Sequence record: PQ299149
Length of the DNA stretch: 42,883 nucleotides
Source: Escherichia phage LLS
Strand: one strand, 5' to 3'
Shown: positions 20,066 through 23,136 of the stretch, piece after piece
How positions within the stretch are numbered: position 1 is the stretch's first letter
Layout: every line of letters starts with the position of its first letter
Program-made: the position numbers and the translations under genes
Notes under the pieces: model-generated
Told to the model about the DNA's origin: nothing
The model's database searches: none
What the model saw: the letters and a program-made list of their open reading frames with translations, nothing else

Positions 20066-21367
20066 ATGCTTTATAACACTGGCACTATTGCTATCAACGG
20101 AAATATCGCCACCGGAACGGGTACGAACTGGACTGCGCCAGCCAGCCAGGTCCGCGCTGGCCAGACGATCATCGTCATGTCTAACCCGGTGCAGATGTTC
20201 CAGATTTCATCTGTGAACAGCGCCACGTCAATGACGGTTACGCCTGCTGCTTCCCCGGCGCTGAGCGGCCAGAAGTATGGAATACTGGTGTCCGACAACA
20301 TCTCTGTCGACGGACTGGCACAGGCGATGTCGCAGCTTATCAAAGAGTATGACGAGAACATTGGCGCGTGGGAGACATTCGCCACTACCTCAGCAAACCA
20401 GACCATCACCGTTACCATCAACGGAACCTCCGTTAATATTCCAAGTATTGGCGCGCTTGCCAGAAAGGGGTCCAACAGCGATATCACCGAGCTGAAAGGG
20501 CTCACTACTGCGCTTTCTGTTGCACAGGGCGGGACTGGGGCAAAGACCGAAGCTGACGCTCGCGCAAACCTCGGTTTGGGAAGTAGCGCGACGAAGGACG
20601 TGGGAACAGCTGCAGGAAACGTAATGCAGGTGGGAGCGTTTGGCCTGGGGAACAGTTCAGCGCAGGTAATTACTGACGTGTGGGATAAATCATTAGGCAG
20701 CAGGTTTATTATGATGTCTCCATCAACTTCAGGCGGGCCACAATATTACTCTATGGGTATTAGAATATCTGAGCGCAGTTGGGGAAATGGCCCAAATGAT
20801 GTTTCCCAGCAATCATTTTCTGCATTCTCGATGGGAGGAAAAAGATTCACATGGATGACAATGGCTGATGGGGTTAATTCTGGGTGGCTAGAGGTTTATC
20901 ATAACGGCAATACCACAAAGTCCAGTGATGGGACACTGAAAGCAGCCTCGCCTGTGATTAAACTTTTTTCCGATGGCAGATACCTGACCAACGATGAATC
21001 AGAGGGCTGTACTGTAACCCGTCTGGCCACAGGTGAATATCTGGTTGAAGGTTGTGAAGGGCTAAACTCGGACGCCGCATGGGGCGGCATTGATGGTGGT
21101 TTTGATATCCCCACAGACCGCAACAAACAGCCCCTGATCTGGCTGGATTATGAGGTTAATGCTGACGGTTCAGTATTAGTGAAAACCTATCACCGCACGT
21201 ATCCAGACGCGCCAACATTCGCCAGAAATGAATTACTGGGTGTTGATGATGGCGCTCCGGTCGATATTCCGCGTGACCAGTTTGTCAGTATTCGAGTGGA
21301 AATGCCCGCGGACAGCATCTGGAATCAACGACAGAAATATACAACGAGAGCCCCTGTAAAAGAGTAA
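20066..21367 (+). CDS. Tail fibre protein, currently expressed form (constant N-terminus plus variable C-terminal cassette A)
   Basis: 433 aa; N-terminus MLYNTGTIAINGNIATGTGTNWTAP and collar motif LSVAQGGTGAKTEADARANLGLGSSATKDVGTAAG typical of side tail fibres; crossover repeat lies at codon 169. Confidence 0.8.
   Translation: MLYNTGTIAINGNIATGTGTNWTAPASQVRAGQTIIVMSNPVQMFQISSVNSATSMTVTPAASPALSGQKYGILVSDNISVDGLAQAMSQLIKEYDENIGAWETFATTSANQTITVTINGTSVNIPSIGALARKGSNSDITELKGLTTALSVAQGGTGAKTEADARANLGLGSSATKDVGTAAGNVMQVGAFGLGNSSAQVITDVWDKSLGSRFIMMSPSTSGGPQYYSMGIRISERSWGNGPNDVSQQSFSAFSMGGKRFTWMTMADGVNSGWLEVYHNGNTTKSSDGTLKAASPVIKLFSDGRYLTNDESEGCTVTRLATGEYLVEGCEGLNSDAAWGGIDGGFDIPTDRNKQPLIWLDYEVNADGSVLVKTYHRTYPDAPTFARNELLGVDDGAPVDIPRDQFVSIRVEMPADSIWNQRQKYTTRAPVKE
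20559..20584 (+). repeat. Invertase crossover site (hix/gix-like), left
   Basis: CTCGCGCAAACC-TC-GGTTTGGGAAGT; half-sites CAAACC/GGTTTG around a 2-bp core; shares TCGGTTTGGGAA with the right site in inverted orientation. Confidence 0.7.
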
Positions 21368-21381
21368 GGCCACTGAACAAA

Positions 21382-21412
21382 TGCAGCCCGTCATTTACCG
21401 GAACGGGCTGCA
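21382..21412. terminator. Stem-loop between the two convergent fibre cassettes
   Basis: TGCAGCCCGT / ACGGGCTGCA 10-bp stem; A-rich upstream on + strand, so a U tract on the minus-strand transcript. Confidence 0.45.
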
Positions 21413-21428
21413 GCTGAATGCTAAGGCT

Positions 21429-22505
21429 TCATGATGCCGTTATTTTTAGCTTAAGCTCCTCCAGCTCGTACTGTGTAGCATCCAGCTTCTTGATGACGTA
21501 GTTCAGGGCCAGCACGGTATCAAGCATAATGACGTTCGTATCAAGCGCCAACGTATCATCAGCATCAACCCTGTTTCCTTCGCTATCAAACTTTGGCGCA
21601 GCAGGGACCAGCTTTACGTACTCACTATCAATCTTCATGACGTCCTGAGCGATTACACCTCGGCGAACTCTCTCACGAGGGTCATCGTTGTAGACGTAAG
21701 TTGCTGGCAGGAATTTCCTGATATTCTCGTATGACTGATAACCATCATCATATTTAATATCGTGCTTCAGCGTAATGTCACAGTTAGGCTGCTTCTGGAA
21801 AATATAGTTACCGGAAAGATTTCCACCAGCGTTGGCGTATATATCACCGTTTGCTGTCGTGAATTGAAATATACGTTGCCCGGCAGAACCACCATCCCCG
21901 AGTGTTGTTATTGCTACATCCGCCCACGAACTAGGCCCGGTAGCTATAGAACCAAGCCCTACTGTTGAAGAATATCCACCACTGCATTGACTATGCCAAC
22001 GGGCAAAAGGAATAAACCCTGCATCATTATTAACGGATACGTTGCCTCGGAAAAAAGAGATATTTCTTTGCCATGTGTTAATGTCTGACCAGGAGCCACC
22101 ATAACCAGCCCCATCAGCTCCACACGAAGATGATTTGAATCTCTCATCGGGGTAAAATAAAAATGAACCCGCCGTACCAGTTCCGCTATTAACATTTAAC
22201 TGCGCTCTGTCTAAATTAGTCCCACTCCCCCGAACGCCACCAAGAGACCAGTTCCCGTTATACCAGGCCCCTCCCACAGCGTTTACATAACTTCCTACAG
22301 TCCCATCCCCTGTGATGTTGTATAGCTTAACAGCCTTATCACCACCCTCCTGCGTGGATACTCGAATACTATTTCCCTGAGTTACCATCAAACTGCCGGT
22401 AACATTTCCCCCTGTTTTTTTATCGACAGTATTCAACCGCGAATCATCCCCGGCCGCCACGGTTCCGGCAGCCGTTCCAACGTTCCTCGTGGCGCTGTTT
22501 CCCAA
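21429..22505 (-). CDS. Silent alternative tail-fibre C-terminal cassette B with C-terminal intramolecular chaperone (peptidase S74-like) domain
   Basis: 358-aa ORF whose first codon is TTG with no RBS; begins with the same LGNSAT-VGTAAG motif found after the left repeat; C-terminus RRGVIAQDVMKIDSEYVKLVP...LDTVLALNYVIKKLDATQYELEELK resembles endosialidase-type chaperone domains. Confidence 0.7.
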   Translation of the reverse strand: MGNSATRNVGTAAGTVAAGDDSRLNTVDKKTGGNVTGSLMVTQGNSIRVSTQEGGDKAVKLYNITGDGTVGSYVNAVGGAWYNGNWSLGGVRGSGTNLDRAQLNVNSGTGTAGSFLFYPDERFKSSSCGADGAGYGGSWSDINTWQRNISFFRGNVSVNNDAGFIPFARWHSQCSGGYSSTVGLGSIATGPSSWADVAITTLGDGGSAGQRIFQFTTANGDIYANAGGNLSGNYIFQKQPNCDITLKHDIKYDDGYQSYENIRKFLPATYVYNDDPRERVRRGVIAQDVMKIDSEYVKLVPAAPKFDSEGNRVDADDTLALDTNVIMLDTVLALNYVIKKLDATQYELEELKLKITAS

Positions 22506-22522
22506 ACCGACGTTTTATAGAT
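22497..22522 (-). repeat. Invertase crossover site (hix/gix-like), right
   Basis: Minus-strand reading ATCTATAAAACG-TC-GGTTTGGGAAAC; inverted relative to the left site. Confidence 0.7.
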
Positions 22523-22578
22523 TGCTCTCAAGCGGCCTGGCCGATAACTTCACCTGATTTTTTTGCTGAAATAACTGG

Positions 22579-23136
22579 GTGAAAAATATGCAAATTGGCT
22601 ATGTAAGGGTGTCAACAAATGACCAAAATACGGATCTTCAGCGGCAAGCGCTCGAACGCGCAGGATGTGAACAAATTTTCGAAGAAAAAATGAGCGGAAC
22701 GGTAGCAAACCGGCCAGAACTAAAAAAGCTTCTCAAGGCATTAAATGAGGGGGATACGCTGGTGGTCTGGAAGCTGGATCGGCTTGGGCGCAGCATGCGT
22801 AATCTGGTGCTGCTGGTGGACGAACTTCGGCAGCGCGGTATCCACTTTAAGAGCCTCACCGACAGTATCGATACATCAAGCCCAATGGGGCGCTTCATCT
22901 TCCATATCATGTCAGCCCTGGCGGAAATGGAAAGGGAGTTGATTGTGGAACGCACCCGGGCAGGTCTGGCTGCAGCTCGTGAGAAAGGGAGAATCGGCGG
23001 CAGGCGTCCGAAGCTCACCCTGGAGCAATGGGCTCAGGCAGGGCGGTTGATAGCGAACGGTGTAGACAGGAAGCAGGTCGCAATAATTTATGACGTTGCA
23101 GTATGCACGCTATATAAAAAATTTCCTGTGGGATAA
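22579..23136 (+). CDS. Serine-recombinase DNA invertase (Hin/Gin/Cin/Pin family)
   Basis: 185 aa; near-colinear with Hin: IGYVRVSTNDQNTDLQRQAL, ANRPELKKLL, GDTLVVWKLDRLGRSMRNLV, HFKSLTDSIDTSSPMGRFIFHIMSALAEMERELIVERT; C-terminal HTH. Confidence 0.95.
   Translation: MKNMQIGYVRVSTNDQNTDLQRQALERAGCEQIFEEKMSGTVANRPELKKLLKALNEGDTLVVWKLDRLGRSMRNLVLLVDELRQRGIHFKSLTDSIDTSSPMGRFIFHIMSALAEMERELIVERTRAGLAAAREKGRIGGRRPKLTLEQWAQAGRLIANGVDRKQVAIIYDVAVCTLYKKFPVG

Follow-up and report, generated by a model that had tools for sequence, protein, structure and literature searches.

A Gin/Cin/Pin-type inversion switch, very probably functional, in the side tail-fibre gene of the lambdoid Escherichia phage LLS

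In the genome of Escherichia phage LLS (record PQ299149; 42,883 nucleotides, the whole of which was analysed and is called the window here), a tail-fibre gene is followed by an open reading frame (ORF) that runs in the opposite direction without a start codon, and then by a gene for a small serine recombinase. Does this arrangement work as a switch that exchanges the C-terminal part of the fibre, and, if so, what would the switch do for the phage? An initial annotation had read positions 20559-23136 as a Hin/Gin-type invertible segment serving a programmed host-range switch. We conclude that the locus is very probably a functional two-cassette inversion switch of the Gin/Cin/Pin type in the side tail-fibre gene of a lambdoid (phi80/mEp043/Flotzy-like) phage.

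The side tail-fibre gene (20066-21367, plus strand) encodes 433 amino acids, and a crossover site is embedded in it at codon 169. Its constant N-terminal part, codons 1-169 (20066-20572, plus strand), is kept in both orientations. This part fell into the PHROG tail-fibre families phrog_12714 and phrog_1591 and showed 86-91% nucleotide identity to the fixed fibres of HK97-like, mEp and Flotzy phages. Downstream lies the invertible segment (20573-22508; 1936 bp between the cores), which contains two cassettes. Cassette B (20573-21367, plus strand; 264 codons and a stop) supplies the expressed C-terminus. It ends in a Phage_tail_C_2 domain (Pfam PF25670, E = 6.8e-57; phrog_1591) and is homologous to the solved 'putative tail fiber' 7Z47_D (E = 2.4e-79). 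Cassette C (21429-22508, minus strand; 359 codons and a stop, with no start codon) is the silent alternative, and the start-less minus-strand ORF in it, 21429-22505, has 358 codons. The endosialidase-type chaperone domain that had been proposed for its end was found as Peptidase_S74 (Pfam PF13884, E = 9.6e-10, 39 bits against a cut-off of 22, residues 242-297), and the cassette aligned to the C-terminus of the solved L-shaped tail fibre 8HQZ_d. The two cassettes open with a similar leader of 17 residues, of which 13 are identical (GLGNSATRNVGTAAG in cassette C, GLGSSATKDVGTAAG in the expressed gene). Beyond this leader they are unrelated, and it is with this limit that the earlier statement of unrelated C-termini holds.

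The two crossover sites were as described in the initial annotation. The top inverted repeat in 19900-23300 joined 20566-20622 to 22459-22515 (57 nucleotides, 82% complementary). A 17-nucleotide core, AAACSTCGGTTTGGGAA, was present in exactly two copies in the window, in opposite orientation, where 0.01 would be expected by chance; a third copy was not found there with up to three mismatches. The left site (20559-20584, plus strand, 26 bp) reads CTCGCGCAAACC-TC-GGTTTGGGAAGT, and its TC core at 20571-20572 forms positions 2-3 of fibre codon 169. The right site (22497-22522, minus strand, 26 bp) reads ATCTATAAAACG-TC-GGTTTGGGAAAC on the minus strand, with the plus-strand core GA at 22509-22510. 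Both thus contain AAAC[C/G]-TC-GGTTTGGGAA with identical cores. When they were aligned to the sites of phage P1 as annotated in its record, cixL (CAATCCTAAACC-TT-GGTTTAAGAGAA) and cixR (TTATCCAATACC-TT-GGTTTAAGAGAA), the same layout of 12+2+12 was seen. The outer half of the right site carries an in-frame TAA (TAA-AAC-GTC) ahead of the adjacent cassette, and this stop codon keeps the unused cassette silent whichever way the segment lies.

The recombinase belongs to the enzymes known to act on such sites. The longest ORF, 22579-23136 (185 codons), begins with GTG and matched the Pfam families Resolvase (E = 8.5e-51) and HTH_7 (E = 2e-12). Homology places the true start of this serine DNA invertase gene at ATG 22588 rather than GTG 22579, so that the gene would span 22588-23136 (plus strand, 182 amino acids). 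Residues 1-181 aligned with the structures of Mu Gin (3UJ3/4M6F) with E = 2.4e-87, compared with only E = 2e-30 for gamma-delta resolvase, and the claim of near-colinearity with Hin, Gin and Pin was borne out along the full length of Gin. In a residue-by-residue alignment to Gin 4M6F, Ser9 occupied the catalytic position and the conserved R/D/R positions were kept. The best PHROG was phrog_125 'DNA invertase' (E = 8.8e-90), and the closest characterised invertase was P1 Cin (76% amino acid identity). An NCBIfam search gave nothing above the cut-offs for the invertase or the fibres.

Inversion of 20573-22508 in silico resulted in an uninterrupted 528-amino-acid fibre, as had been predicted for exchange at the TC core. 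The fusion matched natural proteins of 528 amino acids (P0001, P0124, P0127) and was colinear with the fixed fibre of phage PHB10 (71% identity over 525 amino acids). The 433- and 528-amino-acid products both exist in nature with identical N-termini: the 169 N-terminal residues are the same in the Escherichia coli proteins P0106 (433 amino acids) and P0124 (528 amino acids). In the mechanism we propose, the invertase would pair the two inverted 26-bp sites, cut at the shared central TC and flip the 1.94-kb segment. Either orientation gives an in-frame fibre because the left site lies inside the fibre ORF and the cassettes share the leader G-L-G-x-S-A-T. State 1, that of the window, would join codons 1-169 to cassette B (433 amino acids, Phage_tail_C_2 tip). 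State 2 would join them to cassette C (528 amino acids), ending in an S74 intramolecular chaperone of the self-cleaving type. The unused cassette would stay silent for want of a start codon and by the stop codon ahead of it in the outer half of the right site. As there are two in-frame states, a lysogen population should release virions with mixed side-fibre tips, which would amount to bet-hedging on the receptor of first contact.

Does the segment invert in nature? The 433-amino-acid fibre of the window is identical, residue for residue, to WP_113415862.1 of E. coli GCA_003303355.1 (L113), whose locus has 98.0% nucleotide identity to window positions 14067-23804. We considered whether the window represents the same strain as this E. 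coli, and rejected it at that level of identity despite the identical fibre protein. A second assembly, E. coli GCA_050029055.1 (L110), carries the same prophage as L113, next to smpB. Between the two, 6,500 bp of left flank and 4,852 bp of right flank showed no mismatch, and the 1,950-bp block between the sites was inverted. The inverted block differed at only two positions, the asymmetric C/G positions of the outer half-sites just outside the core, which stay put. Because only these outer positions differ, the exchange can be placed within TCGGTTTGGGAAGTAGCGC, 19 nucleotides starting at the predicted TC core. L110 encodes the 528-amino-acid fusion (P0124), with its first 169 residues identical to those of the window. 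Both orientations of near-identical loci are thus present in public genomes, and for these loci the check proposed in the initial annotation, which a lack of the other orientation would have failed, comes out in favour of a switch.

Other genomes gave the same picture. Enterobacter asburiae GCA_046232805.1 (L109) was a mirror image of the window: the window aligned to it as three blocks, of which the second was reversed, and the window inverted in silico was colinear with it over 7,061 bp (94.9%). Among five sister isolates of E. coli CX, with an invertase 99% identical to that of the window (180 of 182 residues), the orientation of the homologous segment was split 3:2. In the pair compared directly, CX15 and CX07, the flanks were 100% identical and a 2,037-bp flip was bounded by the sites. 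This flip took place between site 2, which immediately follows the stop codon of the fibre that is expressed, and site 3 (4403-4480 and 6362-6439 in CX15, L001). It rearranges the two silent cassettes alone; the expressed protein is the same in both orientations. Site 1 of CX, embedded in the fibre, has a diverged inner half (GGTTTAGGCGCA). In a draft assembly of Dryocola boscaweniae (H6W4, L061), the start of one cassette was joined to three outer flanks, which part from one another precisely at the core. Of these junctions, two were on contigs of 240 bp and 247 bp with 19x and 33x coverage, compared with 69x for the main contig; at the level of an assembly, such contigs are the usual signature of a mixed population. 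Judged from these assemblies, precise flips bounded by the sites were seen in four independent lineages: the L113/L110 pair, E. asburiae L109, CX and Dryocola.

A further case involved a site that is not one of the two. E. coli GCA_001058145.1 (L111) and the Logan assembly of run SRR1656162 (L112), an independent assembly that may or may not derive from the same sample, had the inverted state plus a second inversion of 268 bp. This second inversion (8156-8205 and 8421-8470 in L111) joins the right site to a quasi-site in cassette B, GAATCTTTTTCC-TC-CCATTGAGAATG, with the exchange exactly at TC, and breaks cassette B. The corresponding quasi-crossover site in the window lies at 20823-20848 (core GA at 20835-20836) and has one base different. 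Secondary 'quasi-cix' sites have been described for Cin, and the behaviour here is alike. From the sequences of these junctions, it is difficult to account for the secondary inversion by anything but the action of a serine invertase on them.

Several points weigh against a working switch as we read it. The window's own molecule shows one orientation only. A consensus scan called no sigma-70-like promoter between the right site and the invertase ATG; we would expect the invertase to be expressed constitutively at a low level. The outer half-sites match the inner halves poorly, as is also the case for P1 cixL. The recombinational (Fis) enhancer is a candidate assigned by positional homology alone: 22606-22677 (plus strand), inside the 5′ end of the invertase gene, corresponds to nucleotides 19-90 of P1 cin, the stretch that the P1 annotation gives as the inversion enhancer. 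This stretch, which is also coding sequence, was 75% identical to P1 and 78% identical to its counterpart in Mu gin. A crude home-made scan for the Fis motif (G-N13-C) found a shared 15-mer centred on nucleotide 78 and no clean pair 48 bp apart. By analogy with the characterised systems, inversion would depend on Fis and this enhancer. Two further points concern the product. Work on endosialidases has defined a catalytic Ser-Lys dyad (S-x4-K) with which S74 domains begin. In cassette C, this domain starts with Cys242 (C-D-I-T-L-K; 21780-21782, minus strand) at the position of the canonical nucleophile Ser; the Lys five residues further on is kept, and the aligned residue in 8HQZ_d is Ser. The same Cys was found in PHB10, E. 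coli CX and E. asburiae, and other cassettes of related switches have S-D-x3-K. With the canonical Ser absent, auto-processing of cassette C is putative. The phage also has a J-type tip protein, so that its side fibre may be dispensable for infection.

The first two of these points would fit a frozen relic, in which segment and invertase come from an active switch that no longer inverts in the window phage, the silent cassette being a fossil. The cause might be an invertase that is not expressed, or a weakened enhancer or left site. Decay is indeed visible in relatives: E. coli 210205630 retains only a partial helix-turn-helix (HTH) remnant of the invertase, the invertase of E. asburiae ATCC 35953 is fragmented, and cassette B is broken in L111 and L112. 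In the window, however, both cassettes are intact ORFs, and so is the invertase, only two residues away from that of CX, where the segment flips. The right site is identical to site 3 of CX15, the boundary of an observed inversion, and the left site is identical to the left site of L113 and L110, where recombination is evident. We therefore regard a frozen relic as unlikely.

More improbable still, in our judgment, is an inversion that is real and serves mainly the host, the flip in the prophage producing a fibre fragment that would block the adsorption of other phages. There is a precedent: inversion of the e14 P segment driven by PinQ/PinE gives a chimeric StfE2 that blocks adsorption of phage T2 (PMC12529663). 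The fibre at issue here is, moreover, a side fibre of a phage that also has J. However, the window looks like a complete lambdoid genome and not like a cryptic remnant, and both fusion products are full-length and colinear with fibres of plaque-forming phages.

The crossover site is not confined to switches. It was also found in fixed fibres without an invertase (L083, L089 and L106), and Flotzy has a related stretch; the reason is that the site codes for a conserved N-L-G-L-G hinge. Fibre N-termini with the embedded site were common in Enterobacter, Escherichia, Lelliottia, Citrobacter and related genomes and metagenomes. A scan of 298 Gb of genome contigs for the 17-nucleotide core gave 71 matches, with about 70 expected by chance (our estimate), and only about 13 of them, from Enterobacterales, were in a fibre context. 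The exact 33-nucleotide junction pattern, searched in both orientations, had no match in the genome contig collection; in IMG/VR it occurred in three relatives only, none of them in the inverted state. The idea that the repeat is merely a conserved fibre peptide (NLGLGxSAT) in two mosaic fragments that happen to face each other could draw on this coding constraint and on the chance number of matches, yet we give it almost no credence, as the second copy is inverted, start-less, in frame and adjoining a Gin/Cin-family invertase gene, and as it is contradicted by the L113/L110 data and the precise flips at exactly these sites in the other lineages. An inverted second copy together with an invertase is what makes a switch.

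What a functional inversion switch would mean for the phage is a separate matter. The part of the initial annotation that proposed an invertible, in-frame exchange of the fibre C-terminus is supported; for the effect on host range, the wording has to be softer. A change in receptor use, and through it in host range, would be expected from the exchange of tips. Because the phage also has a J tip, 'host-range switch' may mean a switch of the first, reversible receptor. The effect may thus be on adsorption or on the primary receptor rather than on host range in an all-or-none manner. Both tips would probably fold in a self-sufficient way.

How does this locus compare with known switches? Its enzyme, sites, geometry and target place it in the Gin/Cin/Pin family. 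Like the G segment of Mu with Gin, it has a constant fibre N-terminus, an invertible segment and an invertase on the same strand, and exchanges the C-terminus in frame. Mu, however, is a myovirus with fibres as the main adhesins and a 3-kb G segment with a tfa gene (U/U′) behind each Sv cassette, whereas the window has a 1.94-kb segment without tfa in a lambdoid side fibre. With the C segment of P1 and Cin it shares AAACC-NN-GGTTT sites of 12+2+12, in which the inner half is conserved and the outer half varies. It differs from P1 in its core (TC instead of TT) and from the 4.2-kb P1 segment, which carries the U/U′ chaperone genes and lies on the other side of cin. The P segment of e14 in E. 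coli K-12, inverted by PinE and also by PinQ and PinR, is alike in its lambdoid context, its stf-type side fibre and its length of 1.8 kb. Its repeat, TTGGTTTGGGAGAAGG, differs little from the inner half-site of the window, TCGGTTTGGGAAGT/AAAC, and it carries tfaE and tfaP besides stfE and stfP in a prophage that is defective (PMC12529663). The window differs from e14 in having no tfa and an apparently complete phage genome. Prophage tail-fibre genes with programmed inversions are widespread, and long reads have validated such inversions (Milman et al. 2023, PMC9881135). Our literature search found no paper describing the Flotzy/Eeyore phage group or an invertible fibre bearing S74.

The absence of tfa had led the initial annotation to propose a chaperone-free two-cassette variant of the classical switch. 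In 20573-22508 there was indeed no Tfa/Caudo_TAP ORF and no such match in Pfam or PHROG, and just 61 bp separate the cassettes. This is not special to the locus. In 11 invertase-bearing relatives, the segment was 1.4-1.7 kb long and held exactly two self-contained cassettes of 209-326 amino acids arranged tail to tail, which filled it in all 11 and left no room for Tfa. Each of the 10 cassettes scanned against Pfam matched Phage_tail_C_2 or Peptidase_S74, and none of these 10 had a Tfa/Caudo_TAP match. The fixed-fibre phages Flotzy (PP925827) and PHB10 (MK524177), the two whose annotation was read, also had no tfa. Therefore, the absence of Tfa reflects the fibre family and is not an innovation of the switch. 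A Tfa behind each cassette belongs to the cargo of Mu, P1 and e14 and not to the recombination system. Flotzy and PHB10 differ from the window in having no second cassette and no invertase. Flotzy, with a structural module 96.6% identical, has a B-type fixed fibre directly followed by dinI; PHB10 has a C-type fixed fibre of 515 amino acids followed by umuDC. In Dryocola, at L061 10057-10188, a crossover site comes right after the stop codon of a gene ending in …IHWPGQPSS, which is Tfa-like by its C-terminal motif only. If so, other hosts combine this site and this invertase family with cassettes that do bear Tfa.

Some relatives have more than two cassettes. E. coli CX and E. asburiae ATCC 35953 (L003) have three sites and three cassettes. 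Phage Eeyore (PP925821; L007 and L006, with the record ends joined) has four of each and a more distant invertase (68% amino acid identity); its deposited linear record is cut within the invertible region. In these multi-cassette relatives, the internal sites lie directly after cassette stop codons. They can shuffle fibre ends, and in this they are like the shufflons and the Min multiple-inversion system of plasmid p15B, reportedly the subject of work by Sandmeier and colleagues in 1990-92. We rejected the window itself as a Min-like system, for it has only two sites.

The left junction of the window (20571-20594) equals the left part of site 1 joined to the right part of site 2 of E. asburiae L003 (6652-6680 and 7439-7467), with the breakpoint of the hybrid within 24 nucleotides starting at the TC core. 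Because the junction is such a hybrid, the two-cassette form can be read as a deletion derivative of a three-cassette form. Most simply, recombination between sites 1 and 2, as direct repeats, would have removed one cassette of about 790 bp. The record of L003 (NZ_CP011865.1, 'plasmid unnamed 2', 13.7 kb) is colinear with the tail, fibre and invertase region of the window and ends in yejM-like chromosomal genes; its content suggests a piece of prophage that was assigned wrongly. Either frameshifts or sequencing errors have broken up the invertase and one cassette in this record.

We regard self-contained cassettes without Tfa, a lambdoid side fibre as the target and a probable descent by deletion from a multi-cassette form as modest variations on the family. 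A joint reading would make them features of an undescribed subfamily of Gin/Cin/Pin switches in lambdoid side fibres of Enterobacteriaceae, with self-sufficient Tfa-free tips (S74 or Phage_tail_C_2), two to four cassettes added by way of sites after stop codons, Cys as the nucleophile of auto-cleavage, and the window form produced by invertase-mediated deletion. We put this forward tentatively, as a combination a little less likely to hold in full than to fail in one of its parts.

The locus offers a clean, naturally validated case of what would be phase variation in the receptor recognition of a lambda-like siphovirus, and public genomes alone were enough to map the crossover to about 19 nucleotides. 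The mechanism is classical and the understanding of how such switches work is unchanged. For annotation, a fibre gene beside a small serine recombinase should be entered with all of its alternative products, two or more in number. An inversion between two assemblies of such a prophage can be a genuine difference, and host-range predictions from a single assembly would miss half of the repertoire. Compact Tfa-free cassettes of about 0.8-1.1 kb each, one of them self-chaperoning, could suit the engineering of switchable receptor-binding modules.

In the 61-bp spacer between the cassette stop codons there is a stem-loop (21382-21413), a possible two-way terminator. The fold of 21360-21435 had -25.3 kcal/mol (z = -2.67), and the consensus terminator scan did not call this hairpin.

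As a whole, the window looks like the complete genome of a lambdoid temperate phage, with terminase, portal, tail, J, integrase, lysis and early genes. In its structural half, identity was 95-97% to the E. coli phages Flotzy, Eeyore, mEp043 and mEp213, and to phi80 it was about 94%. The J-type tip protein has 1154 amino acids, and its homologues are annotated as 'host specificity protein J'. After J come two small conserved ORFs, a minus-strand lipoprotein-like ORF, the 433-amino-acid fibre gene, the start-less ORF, the recombinase gene and a dinI homologue. The last (23185-23451, minus strand; Pfam E = 6.6e-24) is a conserved right border of the fibre module and was found both in switch-bearing phages and in phages without a switch. 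The lipoprotein-like ORF (19577-19939, minus strand, 120 amino acids), between the tail genes and the fibre gene and antisense to them, has a lipoprotein-type signal (…LLLASGC…) and matches phrog_25729, a family of unknown function. In PHB10 the equivalent place is taken by a cor (exclusion) gene, and the ORF is possibly a moron or a superinfection-exclusion gene.

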